DNA of 64,000 bases from Acidimicrobiales bacterium (GTDB lineage: Bacteria > Actinomycetota > Acidimicrobiia > Acidimicrobiales > Bog-793). Within the stretch, counting starts at the first letter, position 1, and every line of letters starts with the position of its first letter. Position numbers and translations under genes: made by a program. The DNA is taken from assembly GCA_035532075.1 (NCBI GenBank), contig DATKRV010000028.1, forward strand, positions 12,286 through 76,285. The letters run 5' to 3'. Below, one piece after another: positions 18,670 through 27,386 of this stretch. A model generated the notes under the pieces. The model did not search any database. It saw only the letters and a list, made by a program, of their open reading frames with translations, and was not told where the DNA came from.

Positions 18670-18753
18670 GGGCGAGTGGCGGAATAGGCAGACGCGCAGG
18701 ATTCAGGTTCCTGTGTCCGTAAGGATGTAGGGGTTCAAGTCCCCTCTCGCCCA
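18670..18753 (+). tRNA. tRNA-Leu (anticodon CAG), type II with long variable arm, no encoded CCA
   Basis: Cloverleaf folded by eye: acceptor GGGCGAG/CTCGCCC, D stem GCG/CGC, anticodon stem CAGGA/TCCTG with loop TTCAGGT, and T arm AGGGG-TTCAAGT-CCCCT. Confidence 0.9.
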
Positions 18754-18961
18754 CGCAGGGTTATTTGTAAAACCTGACCGAAAGATTTACGAAACCCCTC
18801 TCAAGGGCCTTCTTGCTGGGGAAATGCTGATCCGGATGGAGATCGTCGAGCGACTAACTTGCGAAACTGTCTTAAATTACGTGATCAGTAAAGGGCTTGA
18901 GCACGTTGATTAGTTTTTGGGCGCGCCAAATTCCCTGTTGTTATTCCCGTGGTGCTCGGAG

Positions 18962-20836
18962 TTAGGCACTCCGAGCGTTCGCTAAATCGCTGTCGTCAAA
19001 ATAGGCGTCGTATCGCAGCCGATGGGGACTCGGCTTTCGCTCAGAGATTTTGATAAGAACACCTTCGCTTGTGGGTTCGGCCTCTGCAATGAAAGTCTCA
19101 ATCTTTCGCAGGTTGGCAGCGACAAGACCCAGGCAACTGAGAAGAGACTGAGCTGCTAAACCACGTAGGCGACGACGCCCCGGGGCACCGAGGTCTTGGT
19201 ACGCAGGGTCCTTCATGTACCCGTTGTAGCCCTCAACGTAATTGCGGAGAAGTCGATAAACCTTGTCCCATTTTTCCAACGCGTAAGGAAATGTCTGGGC
19301 GTATTTTGCGCCTGCACTTGGCGGGAAAGCGACGGTGTGCTTGTTGGTGCAAATCTTTCCAGGGCTCGTCGGAGTCACGGGAATGCGGGTTTTGCCGGCA
19401 TGTTTACGGTCAAGAGACGTCGGTCGCATCTCGCACCGAGCGGTAGGACTGGGCCCAAAGGCCGGGCACACCATGTCGACTGATTCTCCGGGTCGGGAGC
19501 GCTCATTAGGACGCAAGGCGTATCGCTGGCGTTGAATGAGTCGGTCCATCCAGGTTGTGAAGTCGGCATCTGTCTGCGCAGAAGCTTGGAACGTAATGGT
19601 TGCATTGATGAGTGGTTTTGGCATCATCGGGCAGTACCATTGGCCCTCAACGAGAATGGCTCCTTCGTATGTATCCATCTTCCCTAGTTGGTCTTTTCGA
19701 TAGTCGAAGACCATGAGATAGTCGAGCTGTTTTGTGAGAAGTTGGACATCCTCCGGCTTGGCATTGGGAAGAATTCCTCGGTCAGCGACAAGCAGGTCAG
19801 CAGGATAACCGCGTCGGGACAAACTTTTGAGAACGCTTGCCACTCGCGGCGAAATGTCGTGAACATAAGGTCCAAGTTTTAAGGCAGTGACGATTACTGG
19901 GAAGTCCTGGTTGTCTGGGTCCGACGACCCCGCTACCGCCATCATTGCCCCCATCGCGTATTTTGTGCGCGTTCTGGAACGTAATAAACCATCAGGAAGT
20001 TTGGCGAGTTGTTCAAGTTTTGATTTTTCGTCACTTCGCATGACCCACTCACCATGGGGTTCGATGGATTTCTTGTCGGAACGCTTTGAGGGACCGCGAG
20101 CGGCGAGCGGAAGTGCACTCTCGTCAATGGCGATAGCTCCCTTGTACCGGCGACGAATATCGCGGGGAATCGAAAGAAAAGTCACGTCAAGAAGTGCACC
20201 CGTGATTAAGTCGAGGCGGTCAGATTTCATTTCGATATTTGCCATATTTTCGGGAGTCGACCATTTCGCCTTGTATTTGGCGAATTCGGCGTTTGTGAGT
20301 CTTCTGTTCCGAGGGTATTCGTAGGGTTCAATTGGTTCAAGAATGTCTTGCATGCGACGCCAAATCATCGCGTAGTCCGCATTTTTAATAGCTTTTTGAT
20401 GCTTTGCTGAGCCATCTGTTATCACGTGCATTCTGAAATGTGCTCCGATTTCGTCGCACATCTTGGGGCTAATGCGTTTGGTGAGAAGTTCATAAACCTT
20501 GGTCAACAGGAGTGGCTTCTGGTCTAGCGCTAGTACTACGAGCGCGACCAATACTGCTCGGACTGAGAGCAAGTTTCTGGGTCGACCACCAAGGTTTGCT
20601 GGAGAATCCTGCCCCTCTAGCGCTGCGAGTCGGTCTTGTTCTCGCCAGATTTCTAGCTGGTCGAGAATGCTTTTCCCGTTGATTGTCGCCGAGTCTACGA
20701 TGCGGGCTGCTCGTCGCACCCTTGAGTCGGCGATACTTTCTTCGTTGTGGTTCGGGTCAGGGAGCACATCGACGTCATCGAAATCTAAGATTGAAAGTTC
20801 TTGTGAATTTTCAAAGGCGACAGGGATACAGCTCAT
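18962..20836 (-). CDS. Large DDE-transposase-like protein (IS4-superfamily-like motifs)
   Basis: 624 aa. Candidate catalytic triad: AIAIDES, LVADRG, and RNYVEGYNGYMK, which matches the R-x3-E-x6-K spacing of the IS4-type YREK signature. A Cys-containing segment lies between the second Asp and the Glu. No database search was possible. Confidence 0.4.
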   Translation of the reverse strand: MSCIPVAFENSQELSILDFDDVDVLPDPNHNEESIADSRVRRAARIVDSATINGKSILDQLEIWREQDRLAALEGQDSPANLGGRPRNLLSVRAVLVALVVLALDQKPLLLTKVYELLTKRISPKMCDEIGAHFRMHVITDGSAKHQKAIKNADYAMIWRRMQDILEPIEPYEYPRNRRLTNAEFAKYKAKWSTPENMANIEMKSDRLDLITGALLDVTFLSIPRDIRRRYKGAIAIDESALPLAARGPSKRSDKKSIEPHGEWVMRSDEKSKLEQLAKLPDGLLRSRTRTKYAMGAMMAVAGSSDPDNQDFPVIVTALKLGPYVHDISPRVASVLKSLSRRGYPADLLVADRGILPNAKPEDVQLLTKQLDYLMVFDYRKDQLGKMDTYEGAILVEGQWYCPMMPKPLINATITFQASAQTDADFTTWMDRLIQRQRYALRPNERSRPGESVDMVCPAFGPSPTARCEMRPTSLDRKHAGKTRIPVTPTSPGKICTNKHTVAFPPSAGAKYAQTFPYALEKWDKVYRLLRNYVEGYNGYMKDPAYQDLGAPGRRRLRGLAAQSLLSCLGLVAANLRKIETFIAEAEPTSEGVLIKISERKPSPHRLRYDAYFDDSDLANARSA

Positions 20837-21768
20837 CGCGCGTCTCGCAACATTTTTCGGAACTCATCGGCTTCAAGTTCTGGAACGAAGCGGATGTATC
20901 GGCTGAAAGATTCAAGACTCGTGACACCGGCTGCAATTTGGAGCCCCTGGAGCGGTGTGCGTGCAGTGAGGTGGCGAACAATCCACGTTGCGCGCATTTT
21001 TTGGAGATTTGTGCGCGGAGCAATTCCATTTGTCTGGGTTACAAAGCTTGCAGAGACGAGTCGTCCGTTTCGAGCTCTATTTGGCCGAAACAGGTAACGC
21101 TCGGGATGGCCCAGGTAATCAATGAACTCCTGAAACCGCCCTTCCCAATCGGACAACACTGGGACTGCACGCTCTTGAGGTCCACGGATGTAGAGAACGA
21201 CGCCGTCGCTGTCAATGGTTACGTCGCCGACTCTTAGGTCACGTAGTTCGAAATCCTTTAGACCAGCACCGAAACCAGTCGAGATAAAGACGTTTGCGTC
21301 ATGACAACGCGTCTCTGTGCTCTGGCCGTCTGCCCAATTACGAAGCTGGACGATTTCCTCAGCAGAATGAGGGGCTGTGGGGTGTGGCTGCTGGATGACG
21401 CTTAGTCGTGGCGGGATGACACCGGGCCCGAGCAGATGACGAGCCATTGCATAGAGAAGAGAACGCCAGTTACCTACGGTCCCGGTAGAAAGGCCTTTGC
21501 CTCGGGCGAGGATTGATTCTTCGATGACGTCAGGGTGAAGGATGACTGAGCGGTCGAGTTCTAATCCGGCAGTCCGAACGCACCAAGCAATGTGGCCAGC
21601 AAGAACATAAATGAGCATGCTGGGTTCATAAGGCGTCTTACCAATGCACTCTCTGACCAAAGAGCGGGCGAAGTCCCCAATCTCCGGCCAAACAGCTCTT
21701 GCTGGGCCCTGAGGAATGTATTCATCGAGCTTGCGTAGCGGGTCGACCATGGGTTGACGTCGTATCAT
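20833..21768 (-). CDS. Divergent tyrosine-recombinase-like protein
   Basis: The C-terminal half aligns by eye to phage-integrase catalytic boxes (GAGLKDFELRDLRVGDV; ERAVPVL; MRATWIVRHL; SLESFSRYIRF). The start is placed at ATG 21768; the track ORF extends to 21843 and would overlap the divergent HTH gene. The stop overlaps the start of the 624-aa gene. Confidence 0.45.
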   Translation of the reverse strand: MIRRQPMVDPLRKLDEYIPQGPARAVWPEIGDFARSLVRECIGKTPYEPSMLIYVLAGHIAWCVRTAGLELDRSVILHPDVIEESILARGKGLSTGTVGNWRSLLYAMARHLLGPGVIPPRLSVIQQPHPTAPHSAEEIVQLRNWADGQSTETRCHDANVFISTGFGAGLKDFELRDLRVGDVTIDSDGVVLYIRGPQERAVPVLSDWEGRFQEFIDYLGHPERYLFRPNRARNGRLVSASFVTQTNGIAPRTNLQKMRATWIVRHLTARTPLQGLQIAAGVTSLESFSRYIRFVPELEADEFRKMLRDAR

Positions 21769-21821
21769 GATTGATACACCCTGTCTACCCCTGCGCCGTT
21801 TTCGTGTTCTAGCGTGCTTCC

Positions 21822-22109
21822 ATGGCTCGACTCCAGCGGGCAAAACCCAACCAATTGGTCAGTGGGGATTGGCTCGATGGTGCTGCTAATGGTGCTTCTG
21901 CTGCTGCGGCTCAGGTTGTGGCGCGTCGCCTCAGGACCGCTATCGGGGATAAGTCCTTCCGTTCCATCCAGCAACTGACCGGCGTTCCACATTCCACCGT
22001 TCGTAGAATTCTCGTGGGCGACGCCTGGGCTGATTTGGAGACGATTGTCAAGCTTGAAGTCGGGCTTGATATCGACCTTCTCGGTGGTTGGCGTAGCGAA
22101 GCGAAGTGA
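21822..22109 (+). CDS. XRE-family helix-turn-helix regulator
   Basis: SFRSIQQLTGVPHSTVRRILVGDAWADLETIVKLEVGLDIDLL fits the XRE HTH pattern. It is divergent from the recombinase-like gene. Confidence 0.65.
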   Translation: MARLQRAKPNQLVSGDWLDGAANGASAAAAQVVARRLRTAIGDKSFRSIQQLTGVPHSTVRRILVGDAWADLETIVKLEVGLDIDLLGGWRSEAK

Positions 22110-22418: not shown

Positions 22419-22973
22419 GTGACCAACCCACCGAATAGTTCGAAAAGTAACGGTCCTAGGGACTTCCTTACCAATCCTTCCGATTTTGGAACTGTGGCTG
22501 CTCGCTGGAAACCGTGGAAACCGCACCAAAATATCGCGGTCAAGGCGTCGTATTACCAGCACCTCGTTATTGCGAATTGTAGGACCATGCATGGTGTCGA
22601 GCAGATTCAACATTTGACAACATTTGCTCTACAGGTGAAGGAGCATGCTTTGAAAGTTGCGTACGGTCCAGATAAGGGTCCCGCAAAAAGTGTGCCCCCA
22701 CTTACGAGAGCAGAGGAACGCGATATGCAGCGGCTGTTTCGGGGTGAGCGATATGCTCGCATTGAGGATTACTTGGCGTGGTGCGGCGTTGTTGGTATCC
22801 GAGTGCTACCCAATTTCGGTGATCGGGAGTATCTCTTGCCGGTTGATCTTATTGAAGATCCGACACCAAAGATGAACCGTGGGCCGCGTATTGCGCGCAT
22901 AGGTTCTGAACGGGACCGAAAGAATGAGCACTCCTCTGGCGAGATTGCAGACGACTTGTACTCAAGCGACTGA
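22419..22973 (+). CDS. Hypothetical protein, possible degenerate HTH; start uncertain
   Basis: Only the C-terminal ~105 aa look protein-like (LTRAEERDMQRLFRGERYARIEDYLAWCGVVGIRVLP). An AAGGAG box at 22638-22643 sits 5 nt upstream of in-frame TTG 22649 and suggests a shorter product. Confidence 0.35.
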   Translation: MTNPPNSSKSNGPRDFLTNPSDFGTVAARWKPWKPHQNIAVKASYYQHLVIANCRTMHGVEQIQHLTTFALQVKEHALKVAYGPDKGPAKSVPPLTRAEERDMQRLFRGERYARIEDYLAWCGVVGIRVLPNFGDREYLLPVDLIEDPTPKMNRGPRIARIGSERDRKNEHSSGEIADDLYSSD

Positions 22974-24308
22974 AATGCGCGCGGCATCGACCAGCGACAT
23001 GACAAAGTCAGTCAATCTTGTCTGCTCTTGGCGTAGATCATTCGCCGATAGATCAATAATGTATTGGTGAATCTCGATGTCGCCAATAGCACCAATCCAG
23101 CGGTGTCCGACGAACCCGCCGCGTCCTTTAGGTTGAACGATCACGACGTCTTTGCATTCGTAAGAGAGCCCGTAGACAATGGTTTGTTCGAGGTCGTCTC
23201 TGTCGGGTCGGTCTTTTGCAGGCTTGTATTTCACCTCTACGACAACAGGAGATTTTGAGCCTAGGGGCACTGGTCTCACGACGACGTCTGGCTCCGCCTC
23301 AATGTACATTCCTGCACTCAGAAGCTCATCATTTGGATTGCCAAGTACGCTAACCGGAAGGTTTCTATGCTCCGCGTCAGTCGCCAGGGTTCGATATATG
23401 AAACTTTCGAATACATCGCTCATCTGGATTACAAGTGACGAAAGAGGGATTGATTCGCCGCTCTTCTCATGACTGATTCCCTCTTGATGAGCAATTGCCA
23501 CCGATAGGTCGAGCGCATCTCGGTAGTAAGCCCTTGTTGCCGGGAGTGTCAACTTTCCGGTTACCCAAGGGTCGCTCAGAAAATTCAACGACGTATCGAG
23601 TTCAACTTTCTCAAACAATTGGTATGCACGGTTGAGGCGACGGCTCAAATGTGCTTCGACGTTTGGAATTCGGTTTCGTGTCTTCGCAAGAAACCATAAG
23701 GCATGTTTGATGCAGCGGTTGCAATCGATGTCGACAGTTCGTTCGAACCAGCTTGCAGCAACACGGTGAGTGGTACCTCGCGCCTGGAGGGTGGTCACGG
23801 TGCGGTTCATCATGATGCGCCCGCGCGGGAACGATGTCGCCTCTTCGTGTTGGCGGTAGTCGCGTATCAGGCCGTCCTGTGCGATTCGGTCAACGAAATC
23901 ACAAATAGACTTTGCATAAAGCTCAAGAAGGTCATGGCTAAGGTCGTCTTCAGGAAGATAGCGGCGTAGCGAATTCGACAAGCGTTCCGGGATGTATCCC
24001 GCGATCAGCAGAATCTTTGTGAGGTTGCGGAGAGGAGTTCTTGGGACGACTTGAAGTGTGATTGATTCGTTGAGCGGAATAGTTCCAATCCAACCATTGG
24101 CCTGCATCATTAGGCGCCCGTTCTTGGCGCTCAACGTGACGTATTTTGTCCGATTGGGCTCGATATCCACGAGACCATCTCGAAAAAGGAGCTCAGTTTC
24201 TATTTCAAACTGCTCGAACTCCTTGACGGTGATGATTCGCTCCACAGAGTTGTCGGATTCGGGCACGCCATTCGACGAATATGTCGAGTCGTTGGCGGTC
24301 AAAGCCAC
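22962..24308 (-). CDS. mcrC: McrC-like nuclease subunit of a McrBC-type restriction system
   Basis: McrC hallmarks: QANGWIGTIPLNESITLQVVPR, SFPRGRIMMNRT, MSDVFESFIY, and a PD-(D/E)xK core (EPDVVV...VVVEVKYK). GTG start lies 3 nt after the mcrB stop. Confidence 0.8.
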   Translation of the reverse strand: MALTANDSTYSSNGVPESDNSVERIITVKEFEQFEIETELLFRDGLVDIEPNRTKYVTLSAKNGRLMMQANGWIGTIPLNESITLQVVPRTPLRNLTKILLIAGYIPERLSNSLRRYLPEDDLSHDLLELYAKSICDFVDRIAQDGLIRDYRQHEEATSFPRGRIMMNRTVTTLQARGTTHRVAASWFERTVDIDCNRCIKHALWFLAKTRNRIPNVEAHLSRRLNRAYQLFEKVELDTSLNFLSDPWVTGKLTLPATRAYYRDALDLSVAIAHQEGISHEKSGESIPLSSLVIQMSDVFESFIYRTLATDAEHRNLPVSVLGNPNDELLSAGMYIEAEPDVVVRPVPLGSKSPVVVEVKYKPAKDRPDRDDLEQTIVYGLSYECKDVVIVQPKGRGGFVGHRWIGAIGDIEIHQYIIDLSANDLRQEQTRLTDFVMSLVDAARISVA

Positions 24309-24311
24309 TTG

Positions 24312-25301
24312 TCAGTCTTCAGGTGAGGCGGTGGTGGTGTCAGCGCTGTCGCTTGGAGACTTTGACGGGACAATTTGGTTCCAGCTCTTCTCGGCGTCAG
24401 CGTATCCGTGTGGGTCGATGACGTACGCCTTCTTCAAAAGGAATCGCAACTGGTGGTCCCAAAGCGCCTGAAGTGACGCTTCATCCCCGATTCCCCTAAA
24501 GAAGGTATGACCAATAGCTGCCGCGGGCGTCTGAGCAGCCCTGCCATTGATAGTCATGAAGAAGACCTCTACGCGACGTCTCAAATCTGCTGGCATCCCA
24601 GATTCTTCCAAAAACTGCCCCAGCAGAATTCTGCTTGGATCCATCTGGATTTTGGCGAATCGACGCTCAAATGCTGCATCAACTTCATCGACTCCACGGT
24701 CCTGTGGATTCATTGTTGCGAGTATGTAAAGGTTCGCGGGAATCGAACATTCTGTTCCTGAGGCGACCCTGAATTTCAGTCCCCGTTTGCTTTTTTCGAT
24801 GTAGGTGAGAGCTTCGCCGAATACCCTGCCTGGGTCGACTCTGCTGAGTTCGTCGATAACTATAAATACCATTTCATTCGGATGTTCTACCGCGACTCTG
24901 CACATCTGGAGCAAATGTTTGGGGGTGAGTACGAAACCCCCATTTTCTTCGTCGGGAATATAGCCCTCAACAAAATCTTCGTATTGGTATGACGGGTGGA
25001 ACTGGACAAAGCGGACGAGTTCTGATTTGCCCTTAGCTAACGTCACTGCGATTGCAGAGGCGTACCAGCTCTTGCTCGTGCCGGGGGGTCCAACAAAGAT
25101 GACCCCCCCAAAGTCAGAGAGAAGCTGGTTTGTTGTTAGCAAAATATCGTCGTTGTCTTGCAACACGAGATCCTCAAGGTGTTCAGTGGCATCGTTTGCG
25201 ATATAAGTCGCATTTTCCGGAACAAAGAGATTGAGATCTTGCGCGGAAAGTTCCCGAACTTGTGTTCGCGCAAGTGGCGAATTTGGTGTGTCAGTTGTCA
25301 T
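24312..25301 (-). CDS. mcrB: McrB-like AAA+ GTPase lacking an N-terminal DNA-reader domain
   Basis: Walker A GPPGTSKS at about aa 70, McrB signature FHPSYQYEDFVEGY, Walker B VIDELSR, and ATMNPQDRG (NxxD-type guanine specificity). It is only 329 aa. Confidence 0.8.
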   Translation of the reverse strand: MTTDTPNSPLARTQVRELSAQDLNLFVPENATYIANDATEHLEDLVLQDNDDILLTTNQLLSDFGGVIFVGPPGTSKSWYASAIAVTLAKGKSELVRFVQFHPSYQYEDFVEGYIPDEENGGFVLTPKHLLQMCRVAVEHPNEMVFIVIDELSRVDPGRVFGEALTYIEKSKRGLKFRVASGTECSIPANLYILATMNPQDRGVDEVDAAFERRFAKIQMDPSRILLGQFLEESGMPADLRRRVEVFFMTINGRAAQTPAAAIGHTFFRGIGDEASLQALWDHQLRFLLKKAYVIDPHGYADAEKSWNQIVPSKSPSDSADTTTASPED

Positions 25302-25983
25302 GATTAGAGAGTTTTGTCGAAGCTGATACCCGAGTACCTACCGTTGTTGGTTCATCCGAAGATGAACCTGTTTGCTCGAACCAAGTTGTCACACCGGGGA
25401 CCGGATCCGAAGAGAAGAGGTGGTCGAACTCATCGTCATTTCGCGATGCATAACCGAATTCGTCGCGAAATGACCCGATGAGATTTGTGGCGTTTGGGCG
25501 CTCTGAAGAATAAAAACCGAAATTTCTGAGCAAATAGCCCGCGAGGGCGAGCGCTGGAAGTCGATCTCCGTAGAGGAGGTGTTCGCGGGCAAGAACCCAA
25601 TGTTCGGCAGGCAGGTCGATTCCATCCGTGGCCGGAACATTCACGACTCGGGTCAAGGGTTGATTGGGCCGGAGAGAGGATTTCTGGTAACTGCCAGCCA
25701 AATTGTCATTCATCCACGAACGGCCCGCCTTGTTGGCCTGATGCCAAATAGGGCGGAAATACGGTTTGTTTGAAGGTCCACCTGGGACTTTGAGGTATTT
25801 TTCGAGGCGGTGAATTTCCGGCTGGATACCAGTGCTCTTGCCATTTTCAGCCGCAATTTGTCGGTAATGCAAATAGCCAAGGAAGCCGGGATGAACCCTT
25901 CGATTCAGCAACATTTCGACAGAGGATTGAACGGCGACGATAGTAATCACCCAAATGTGTTGTTGCCCATCCGCACCCGCCAC
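25291..25983 (-). CDS. Hypothetical 230-aa protein between the methyltransferase and mcrB
   Basis: Open frame with coding-like composition. Its stop overlaps the mcrB ATG by 11 nt, and a GTG lies 9 nt after the MTase stop. I recognise no motif. The start is uncertain (ATG 25914 is an alternative). Confidence 0.5.
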   Translation of the reverse strand: MAGADGQQHIWVITIVAVQSSVEMLLNRRVHPGFLGYLHYRQIAAENGKSTGIQPEIHRLEKYLKVPGGPSNKPYFRPIWHQANKAGRSWMNDNLAGSYQKSSLRPNQPLTRVVNVPATDGIDLPAEHWVLAREHLLYGDRLPALALAGYLLRNFGFYSSERPNATNLIGSFRDEFGYASRNDDEFDHLFSSDPVPGVTTWFEQTGSSSDEPTTVGTRVSASTKLSNHDN

Positions 25984-25992
25984 GGGATGAGT

Positions 25993-27075
25993 TTACTGGA
26001 GAGCTGGGCTCAGATCGACCCCGAAGGCAGTTCGTCCCATCTCAAAGGCGGTGTCTAACGTGGTGCCAGTGCCCATGAACGGGTCAAGCACAACTCCTGG
26101 CATGAATTCCGCACCGTGTCCGCAGTCTGTCCATCCAACCGTCTCGCGAATGGGGAAAGTGAACTCGCGAAAATAACCACCGAGCACTGACTTCGCCTCC
26201 GCAGCGAGTTGTTTCACTTCGGCCGAATTCCTGCCGGTACCGTTCTGTACGCGGAGTGCTTTACCAGCATCAGAGATGCCGGTTGCCTGGATCGCTGCGA
26301 TGTGAGCCTCGGTGAGCCCACCTTCCTGAGCGAGCTCCATTGCGCGCCTTGCCTGAACACGAGACATGTTGAGGCGGCCAGTCTTCTGCACGATACGCTC
26401 ACGGGGTCGACCACATTGGCTGCAGACTTGTTCTGGACACGCGAGCAGAACCGTCCTTCGGACCAGCTCGGTTGGAAATGGAGCCAAGTGCTCGCCCATG
26501 TTTCTTTGCTGATTTACTGACCACACATCTCCGGGGTTTGCACCATTACCAAAAGCTTCGGAGTAACCAAAGAGGTCGTAGTAGTAGGTGTGCCTTTTTA
26601 CGAGATGGATTATGTACTCATGCCGGTTCGCAAGCCGGTTCTTGGCCGGCTCAGGCATACCACCTTCTTTTGTCCAGATAATCCGGTTTCTGATGATCCA
26701 ACCAGCATCAACAGCAGCTGCCTCAACCCGCCCCGGAATGCCGACAAGTGTGCGTTTGAAGAAAGTGTCGCCAACGTTGAGAAAAACGGAACCCGTTGGT
26801 CTAAGGATCCGACCCCACTCGGTGAGACACTGAAGCATTGCATCTACGTATTCAGCCGGAGTGTCCTCCTGGCCGATTTGCCCCTTCACCCCGTAATCGC
26901 GCTTTTTCCAGTATGGCGGAGAGGTGAACACCAGATCTGCTGAGGCGTCGGGTAAAGGAATGTGACGTGCATCAGCCACATAAGTTCGGTAGATGGGAGC
27001 GCCGCCTGTTTCCAGAAGGGGAGAAAGTAACGGCTCTGACGCGGCCAGCTGGTAGCTCATTTGTGCATCATTCAT
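25993..27075 (-). CDS. Beta-class amino (N4-C or N6-A) DNA methyltransferase, SPPY type
   Basis: Motif IV (LVFTSPPYW) is near the N-terminus and motif I (VLDPFMGTGTT) near the C-terminus, which is the beta-class order. A CxxC-containing insert (CPEQVCSQCGRP) lies between them. Confidence 0.8.
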   Translation of the reverse strand: MNDAQMSYQLAASEPLLSPLLETGGAPIYRTYVADARHIPLPDASADLVFTSPPYWKKRDYGVKGQIGQEDTPAEYVDAMLQCLTEWGRILRPTGSVFLNVGDTFFKRTLVGIPGRVEAAAVDAGWIIRNRIIWTKEGGMPEPAKNRLANRHEYIIHLVKRHTYYYDLFGYSEAFGNGANPGDVWSVNQQRNMGEHLAPFPTELVRRTVLLACPEQVCSQCGRPRERIVQKTGRLNMSRVQARRAMELAQEGGLTEAHIAAIQATGISDAGKALRVQNGTGRNSAEVKQLAAEAKSVLGGYFREFTFPIRETVGWTDCGHGAEFMPGVVLDPFMGTGTTLDTAFEMGRTAFGVDLSPALQ

Positions 27076-27095
27076 ATTGCTAGTATAGCTCGTTA

Positions 27096-27386
27096 ATGTA
27101 TCATTCTGTGATCACTGAAGACTCTCAAAACCTCGACTTGGTTCTGGAACTTGCAGATCGAGTACGTATTGCCAGGGCAGGGAAGCCTTGGACTCAGATT
27201 GAGCTTGCTGCCGCTGCCCGTGTGAGTCGGGCCACGGTCGTACGAATCGAGTCGGGCATCGGGACGCCGCATATGCGTACGGTCCGAGCTCTCGCCGAGG
27301 CATTCGGCTTGGCACCGAGCGAACTGTTCCCAGACCTTGCTCGTTTGTGGGCAGGGCCATCTGTTCGTAAAGTTCGCAGTGGCTGA
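27096..27386 (+). CDS. XRE-family HTH regulator (controller-protein-like position)
   Basis: WTQIELAAAARVSRATVVRIESGIGTPHMRTVRALAEAFGLAPSELF. It is divergent from the MTase with only 20 nt between the two start codons. Confidence 0.7.
   Translation: MYHSVITEDSQNLDLVLELADRVRIARAGKPWTQIELAAAARVSRATVVRIESGIGTPHMRTVRALAEAFGLAPSELFPDLARLWAGPSVRKVRSG

Follow-up and report, generated by a model that had tools for sequence, protein, structure and literature searches.

Why is an ATPase–nuclease pair of the McrBC type, whose canonical members read modified bases, encoded in the same gene block as a DNA methyltransferase (MTase)? The question arises from a locus in a 64,000-nt stretch of an Acidimicrobiales metagenome-assembled genome (GenBank assembly GCA_035532075.1, contig DATKRV010000028.1, positions 12,286–76,285; hereafter the window), in which genes for an MTase, a protein of 230 amino acids (aa), a short McrB-like ATPase and an McrC-like protein follow one another on the minus strand, with an XRE-family helix-turn-helix (HTH) gene divergent from them (Table 1). 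Canonical McrB carries a fused N-terminal reader of modified bases, and has no cognate methylase. We regard it as likely that the block in the window constitutes a single methylation-protected, NTP-dependent restriction–modification (R-M) system with the layout of LlaI and BsuMI, comprising a methylase (M), a detached targeting subunit (R1, the 230-aa protein, hereafter also the reader), an McrB-type ring (R2) and McrC (R3).

In such a system, the methylase would modify host DNA at a site that contains cytosine, the probable product being N4-methylcytosine, and R1 would recognise the same site when it is unmethylated, with methylation expected to block R1. R1 would be coupled to the R2 ring through the peptide VRELSAQDLNL, which a flexible linker joins to the ATPase, and R3 would stimulate NTP hydrolysis and cut by its PD-(D/E)xK site, as in McrBC and LlaJI. 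The distinction has practical consequences: annotation pipelines call these genes “hypothetical protein,” “AAA family ATPase” or “5-methylcytosine-specific restriction protein B,” so that such loci are read as type IV systems or as a paradox, and a methylation-protected reading changes the predictions of which DNA the host accepts.

The gene arrangement is as an earlier note on this DNA had described it. In the table of open reading frames (ORFs) the MTase stop lies 9 nt from the GTG of the 230-aa ORF, the latter overlaps mcrB by 11 nt, mcrB and mcrC are 3 nt apart, and the divergent MTase and XRE starts are separated by 20 nt. The start codons of the MTase and XRE genes are uncertain, and the true divergent spacer may exceed 20 nt because the MTase family alignment is conserved only from approximately residue 27; the GTG start of the 230-aa ORF is reasonable, since the family alignment begins there. 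This module is found again at more than 100 independent loci across many phyla, so that the arrangement is far beyond what chance would produce.

McrB, McrC and the MTase all look active, judging from their intact catalytic motifs. McrB has a Walker A motif (GPPGTSKS, residues 71–78), the acidic pair DE (150–151) and the McrB signature NPQD (198–201), with Walker A, Walker B and NxxD all conserved among homologs; it matches the NCBIfam McrB model (1.1e-25), below the equivalog cut-off. The protein is short, and the earlier note correctly saw no room in it for an N-terminal reader: no domain was found with Pfam ahead of residue 66 in the 329-aa protein, and no reader of the DUF3578/SRA-like, YTH or EVE type. 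The McrB homologs number more than 1700; nearly all of the 120 that were listed are short proteins annotated simply as “AAA family ATPase” or “McrB.” In McrC, the residues PD (340–341) and K360 are invariant among 33 homologs from related loci and residue 358 is always D or E, the window protein having E-x-K at 358–360. Across loci, median identity to the window protein is 47% for McrB, 34% for McrC and 35% for the reader.

In the MTase, motif IV (TSPPY, residues 51–55) precedes motif I (DPFMGTGTT, 331–339), which is the beta-class order that the earlier note had recognised, and the family alignment shows that the region between these motifs is highly conserved and includes a Cys cluster. The enzyme matches the PADLOC MTase_II model (PDLC03316; 3.9e-160), corresponding to the type II class. 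An SPPY motif IV points to N4-cytosine methylation, and from this motif alone the product is predicted to be N4-methylcytosine, with a predicted protective role. MTase homologs that adjoin a reader gene are 57–73% identical to the window enzyme over their full length, across phyla and with any effector, and TSPPY is retained in all 53 full-length copies from reader loci.

The earlier note had treated the 230-aa protein as an orphan, and a word-index search had just two hits, one relative and the query itself. An exhaustive phmmer scan, by comparison, identified 292 representative clusters (215 below 1e-10), so that the label would have been an artefact of the word-index search. Most family members are stand-alone proteins of ∼200–220 aa, with a family domain of ∼205 aa. 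An alignment of 82 sequences shows conservation of HP..F..YL, VPGGP..P.RPF, W.N.N.AGSYAPSSLR and FR.EFGY, as well as an invariant Arg within YRD.GF. The window protein had no match in Pfam, NCBIfam, PADLOC or PHROGs, and the family profile had none at E ≤ 10 among PDB sequences. Its AlphaFold2 (AF2) model, built with the 82-sequence alignment, is a single, mostly helical domain with a mean predicted local distance difference test score (pLDDT) of 90.8 and a predicted TM-score (pTM) of 0.85; Foldseek comparison of this model against PDB and BFVD gave no neighbor (best E-values above 2), and neither the library nor the Foldseek searches detected a PD-(D/E)xK, HNH or GIY-YIG family or fold. Because the structure and sequence searches were empty, the predicted fold appears unlike those of solved McrB readers (SRA-like, YTH, B3) and of nucleases. 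The 230-aa protein is thus newly recognised as a member of a widespread family that has neither a name nor a known fold, and we propose that it is a trans-acting target reader or adaptor; the family would add a targeting domain of no known fold to McrBC-type systems.

A survey of gene neighborhoods, as suggested in the earlier note, revealed a near-obligate link between the reader and one MTase family. One genome per species was scanned, and ORFs were called and then searched with profiles built from the window proteins; this gave 57 loci, spanning Actinomycetota, Acidobacteriota, Pseudomonadota, Bacteroidota, Chloroflexota, Deinococcus, Planctomycetota and others, of which 56 have the reader gene. 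Carriers of the module include Streptomyces, Arthrobacter, Stenotrophomonas, Mesorhizobium, Deinococcus and haloarchaeal plasmids. Of the 56 reader loci, 54 encode an MTase of this family within 5 kb of the reader; its gene either immediately precedes the reader gene in the same orientation or, as in actinobacterial loci, lies convergent on the opposite strand just past mcrC. One of the two loci without it is at a contig end, and the other, the only complete locus without a TSPPY methylase, has a C5-cytosine methylase. This locus (L010, 6193–10934; Pseudonocardia lutea NZ_JBHSQK010000037.1) encodes the C5-cytosine methylase (PF00145) directly upstream of reader–McrB–McrC, which hints that cytosine is the protected base. 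Conversely, when metagenome loci were chosen by their MTase (with ≥2.5 kb of flank on both sides; n = 32), 29 were found to carry the reader.

Reader-less loci include L127 (1619–6046), L132 (1757–6139) and L138 (3376–7392), which have distant MTases (at most ∼56% identical); the proteins encoded after these MTases are of ∼1340–1475 aa, with that of L138 cut by the contig end, and the one that was scanned (L127) has AAA_11/AAA_12 helicase-type domains. Another locus (L072, 7069–10277) encodes an MTase 68% identical to that of the window together with a 659-aa AAA_5 protein and a 419-aa protein. These four loci probably represent other restriction architectures with a related methylase.

The effectors that follow the reader are interchangeable. 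McrB and McrC come next in 33 of the 56 loci and an AAA_21 ABC ATPase in 18, with a DUF4276 protein next in those loci that were checked; an McrB-like ATPase is followed in one locus by an 818-aa DUF2357–PDDEXK_7 protein, in another (L045) by an RE_LlaJI-family protein, and in a third is cut by the contig end; the last two loci are unclassified downstream (L057) or have the reader at the contig end (L028). The ABC variant (L023–L037, L041, L044, L050 and L051; e.g., L025, 8573–10521), in which the ATPase is sometimes fused to the reader, has a PARIS/OLD-like two-gene effector, the ABC ATPase and DUF4276 pair, in place of McrBC. A metagenome locus (L116, 2762–5306; LFFM01002002.1) encodes one methylase and two readers; McrBC comes after one of the readers, and after the second comes a deaminase-like protein that is fused to a GyrA C-terminal beta-propeller. 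Haloarchaeal plasmids (L141, 5992–7063, Salarchaeum japonicum NZ_CP085325.1; L142, Haloprofundus NZ_MN918441.1) encode the methylase, the reader and a 158-aa deaminase-like protein. Several of the deaminase assignments fall below the Pfam threshold, with H..E and CxxC motifs present.

One reader and one methylase combined with several effectors amount to a natural experiment in modularity. A broader, tentative possibility is that reader and TSPPY methylase form a portable self/non-self cassette, the reader docking through a shared peptide (see below) on swappable effectors and directing every one of these to cytosine sites that lack methylation; deaminase effectors would then mutate foreign DNA instead of cutting it, and N4-methylation would block their attack. 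If the deaminase-linked variants are real, they would have a different restriction outcome, and as N4-methylation would chemically block cytosine deamination, they suggest restriction by deamination.

Covalent fusions tie the reader to these effectors. In 7 of the 10 long homologs scanned first, the reader domain is N-terminal to an McrB-type AAA_5 domain, and in the other three to an AAA_21 ABC ATPase; a further scan added the reader–AAA_5 proteins P0090 and P0137 as well as P0101, in which the reader is joined to a cytidine deaminase domain whose match passes the Pfam cut-off. The AAA_5 match in the reader–McrB fusions starts at residue 258–289, and R1 (230 aa) plus the 65 residues that precede AAA_5 in the window McrB match this fused layout; the window R1 and McrB therefore correspond to a split reader–McrB protein. 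The split form is the common one and fusions are rarer. One 501-aa McrB (P0196) is 60% identical to the window McrB over 83% of its length, and the domain fused to its N-terminus has no more than a short stretch in common with the reader family (FFAVPGAPAGKPY...W); this domain may be a divergent paralog of different specificity.

The effectors also share a short N-terminal motif. Despite unrelated folds (McrB AAA+, ABC ATPase, deaminase-like), the partner N-termini conform to ∼[VI]-R-x-L-[TSDN]-A-x-[DE]-L-[GLN]-[ILV] (abbreviated VRxLTAxDL), represented in the window McrB by VRELSAQDLNL, and in the fusions the motif is located in the linker after the reader domain. The strict pattern is present in 54 of 104 reader–partner pairs; when the remaining 50 were scored with a matrix built from the strict matches, 34 exceeded the 99th percentile of control (unrelated) ORFs, and most of the others have a recognisable degenerate copy. 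All deaminase-type partners (P0101, L116, L141 and L142) have the form VRRL..DLGI. AF2 modelling of one natural fusion (P0013; pLDDT 91.8, pTM 0.62) gave pLDDT values of 94–95 for residues 221–240, which include the motif (227–235), and a stretch predicted to be disordered (241–260; pLDDT ∼53–55) separates the motif from the AAA+ domain. Since the reader is the only constant partner of the peptide, we infer that the peptide docks on the reader and so tethers the effector by a flexible linker. The shared peptide makes the coupling between a detached reader and its motor accessible to experiment, a question that the work on LlaI addressed by modelling only.

LlaI, from Lactococcus lactis pTR2030, encodes a controller (C), a methylase (M), a separate DNA-binding protein (R1), an McrB-like R2 and an McrC-like R3; BsuMI, from Bacillus subtilis, has the same three R genes with two methylases, and its target is CTCGARB (bioRxiv 10.64898/2026.08.31.748284, a preprint dated September 2026). 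LlaI.R1 binds non-methylated DNA and R2, LlaI.M is needed to establish the LlaI R genes, and both systems act site-specifically and depend on their own methylase (bioRxiv 10.64898/2026.08.31.748284). The five genes of the window map one-to-one onto the LlaI scheme: controller, M, R1, R2 without a fused reader, and R3. As in LlaI and BsuMI, R2 has no fused DNA-binding domain, R3 directly follows R2 and a methylase accompanies the R genes; the window R1 gene lies directly upstream of the R2 gene and overlaps it, with coupling to R2 suggested by fusions and synteny, and DNA binding predicted.

The likeness does not extend to the fold of R1 or to the manner of its coupling. LlaI.R1 is a two-domain protein of 329 aa with a seven-stranded ERCC4-like sheet, whereas the window R1 family is ∼205–230 aa and predicted to be mostly helical, with no seven-stranded sheet in the model, and Foldseek comparison of the window R1 against PDB gave no match at E < 2 though ERCC1, Eme1 and FAAP24 are in the library. 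The window R1 appears to be set apart from LlaI.R1 and BsuMI.R1 by the published fold description and these negative searches; a plasmid collection searched by McrB similarity turned up only LlaJI-type and canonical McrBC loci and no LlaI locus. In the model of the LlaI complex, R1 contacts the outer face of the R2 ring via a surface patch, and LlaI R2 is reported to have no N-terminal linker, whereas the window R2 retains a ∼65-residue extension bearing the motif. The methylase also differs from those of LlaI and BsuMI in being a single beta-class TSPPY enzyme, with the reader family tied to one methylase family and to several effectors, and the XRE gene, unlike the LlaI controller, is divergent and not conserved in the family. 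An McrBC-like R-M system with a separate DNA-binding protein is thus already known; new are the reader family, its strict methylase pairing, the swapping of effectors and the putative docking peptide.

LlaJI is a further McrB-type NTPase–nuclease pair that is protected by cognate methylation (PMC12707154; PMC1459862); its unmodified site is read via a fused B3 domain, and two methylases are required (PMC12707154). The pairing of the reader with an AAA_5 protein and an RE_LlaJI-family protein in L045 is a further point of likeness. LlaJI differs in its fused reader of B3 fold, its RE_LlaJI nuclease (PF09563) and its C5 methylases, the nuclease of the window being McrC (PF10117); the LlaJI locus recovered in the plasmid search shows the fused-reader layout, and Foldseek gave no B3-like match for the window R1. 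With canonical type IV McrBC (Escherichia coli, Thermococcus) the window pair shares the AAA+ core, Walker A/B, NxxD, a PD-(D/E)xK McrC and the tandem gene order, but the window reader is separate and belongs to an unrelated family, and the methylase is linked essentially everywhere. The two-gene effector of the ABC ATPase plus DUF4276 relatives, a variant absent from the window, is of the same kind as in PARIS (AriA ABC ATPase and AriB TOPRIM) and OLD; PARIS, however, has neither a methylase nor such an N-terminal reader, and is triggered by phage proteins.

The earlier note had seen a paradox in a modification-dependent nuclease encoded beside a modification enzyme. The paradox is resolved by precedent, since LlaI, BsuMI and LlaJI target unmodified sites and have cognate methylases, and the window genes follow the LlaI scheme. 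Among the ways out that the note had offered, recognition of the target in trans by the 230-aa protein is favored by the McrB fusions, the recurring module and the near-obligate MTase linkage, with DNA binding by R1 predicted, and the assignment of the AAA+/nuclease pair as the R component of a methylation-protected system is favored by the comparative evidence, with restriction predicted. The same evidence disfavors the note's remaining suggestion, that nuclease and methylase have orthogonal specificities. On that suggestion the block would be a true type IV system: a foreign modification would be read by the 230-aa protein, and the mark set by the methylase would have some separate role, for instance in epigenetic regulation or in protection against a different system. 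The canonical NxxD of the GTPase clade in McrB, the annotation of homologs as 5-methylcytosine-specific restriction protein B, and the association of McrBC with methylases that Bell et al. noted as surprising and left, unexplained, to a later paper (PMC11090510) are in keeping with it; it would leave without explanation both the co-travelling of R1 and one MTase family through effector swaps, in bacteria and haloarchaea, and the fact that the sole replacement seen is another cytosine methylase, and it runs counter to those McrBC relatives with cognate methylases. We consider it improbable.

Several observations weigh against a methylation-protected system targeted by R1. The binding of R1 to DNA or to McrB is predicted from comparison, and co-transcription of the block from gene spacing only. 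The predicted fold of R1 matches no known reader or DNA-binding domain, and its family is acidic (median isoelectric point 5.4), which is not expected of a simple DNA binder; LlaI.R1 likewise has one acidic face (bioRxiv 10.64898/2026.08.31.748284). The pTM of the P0013 model is only 0.62, so that the motif is suggested, rather than seen, to pack on R1 and not elsewhere. The target base is predicted from the MTase motif only, and the closest solved relatives include N4-cytosine and N6-adenine enzymes alike; indirect hints of cytosine come from the C5 methylase that replaces the TSPPY enzyme in L010 and from the cytidine deaminase-like effectors. Finally, the ABC ATPase and TOPRIM-like partners resemble PARIS-type sensors, which answer phage proteins rather than DNA. 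Such guard logic could apply to the 230-aa protein itself, which would then be a sensor or regulator that detects a phage anti-restriction protein or loss of the methylase, and releases or activates a tethered effector. The acidity and fold just mentioned fit a sensor, as does the range of partners, which include PARIS-like ABC ATPase plus DUF4276 pairs and deaminase-like proteins and not only McrBC. We nevertheless regard a sensor as an unlikely, if conceivable, explanation: in the McrB fusions the domain occupies exactly the position of the DNA reader in every characterised McrB, a DNA site common to both is the simplest explanation of the strict linkage to one conserved methylase family, once swapped for another cytosine methylase, and the LlaI.R1 precedent binds DNA. 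It is very improbable that the block comprises merely two ordinary neighbors, a type II R-M pair with the 230-aa protein as a stand-alone endonuclease, and an independent, reader-less type IV McrBC. Type II endonucleases typically lack detectable homologs, as would fit a protein with no family match, the MTase and 230-aa genes are adjacent in most loci, and PADLOC places the MTase in type II; yet the reader domain is covalently fused to McrB-type AAA+ and ABC ATPases, the effectors after it nearly all carry the shared N-terminal motif, in actinobacterial loci, where the MTase gene is on the opposite strand past mcrC, R1 stays with McrBC, searches with the 230-aa protein gave no nuclease family or fold, and McrB would have no means of finding DNA. 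The sequence and Foldseek searches returned no standard type II endonuclease, the kind of match that the earlier note had named as refuting its view, and the stand-alone endonuclease was rejected on the strength of the fusions and synteny. A recognition domain common to the reader and the MTase was likewise considered and rejected, as profile–profile comparison indicated that the two are unrelated (probability 0.7%).

Table 1. Features of the R-M block and its surroundings, in window coordinates.
Feature	Position	Strand	Length or start	Match or description
McrC-like gene (R3)	22962–24308	−	448 aa, GTG start	PF10117, 1.6e-25
McrB-like gene (R2)	24312–25301	−	329 aa	AAA_5, 4.1e-16, residues 66–215
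Putative docking peptide	25227–25259	−	McrB residues 15–25	VRELSAQDLNL, conserved N-terminal motif
230-aa ORF (R1 equivalent)	25291–25983	−	230 aa, GTG start	0 family matches
MTase gene (M)	25993–27075	−	360 aa	N6_N4_Mtase, 8.4e-37
XRE-family HTH gene	27096–27386	+	96 aa	HTH_3, 8.6e-12; HTH_31, 1.9e-11
Divergent control region	27076–27137			16-bp near-palindrome and face-to-face promoter-like hexamers
Terminator-like hairpin and T-run	22693–22716	−		∼250 nt downstream of mcrC; consensus match only; possible operon end
Island context	18670–21843			tRNA-Leu 18670–18754 (+), then 624-aa ORF and overlapping 336-aa ORF

The XRE gene stands in the position that the earlier note had likened to that of a controller, a comparison that may hold for the window and for its nearest relative (L001; MTase 61% identical), where a 97-aa HTH_3 gene with 33% identity to the XRE protein has the same divergent position. 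It does not hold across the family: among 90 upstream-divergent ORFs (89 from other loci plus the window XRE), no HTH family occurs in more than two members, and a handful, including that of L001, bear an HTH domain. With HTH genes this rare at the divergent position elsewhere, a controller role is plausible for this sub-lineage only, and the XRE gene is a candidate local controller rather than a conserved component of the family. The control region includes a 16-bp near-palindrome, TTCTGTGATCACTGAA (27104–27119; inverted-repeat search), as a candidate operator, and promoter-like sites that run 27128→27100 (−) and 27077→27104 (+); shuffled sequence gave at least as many such sites. Because the palindrome lies inside the annotated XRE ORF, the gene may start later (GTG 27108 or TTG 27138).

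The module is probably carried on an integrated island, given the low GC content and the adjoining tRNA-Leu and weakly integrase-like genes. GC content is ∼51% over 20–26 kb, compared with ∼58–60% elsewhere in the window. The 624-aa ORF beside tRNA-Leu had no family match, and the 336-aa ORF has weak integrase similarity (XerC, 0.0025, in the NCBIfam scan; phrog_1 integrase, 2.6e-4); a search for att-type direct repeats around the island gave none that was convincing. Terminator-like matches of the kind found downstream of mcrC number 12, against 5.6 expected from shuffles (SD 2.8), and with so weak a consensus they were not used to argue for co-transcription. A 184-aa ORF (22419–22973, +) runs toward mcrC and shares 12 nt with the 3′ end of that gene; Pfam, NCBIfam and PHROGs gave no match for it, and it is possibly spurious. 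Nearby, a 95-aa ORF (21822–22109, +) has a weak HTH_3 match.

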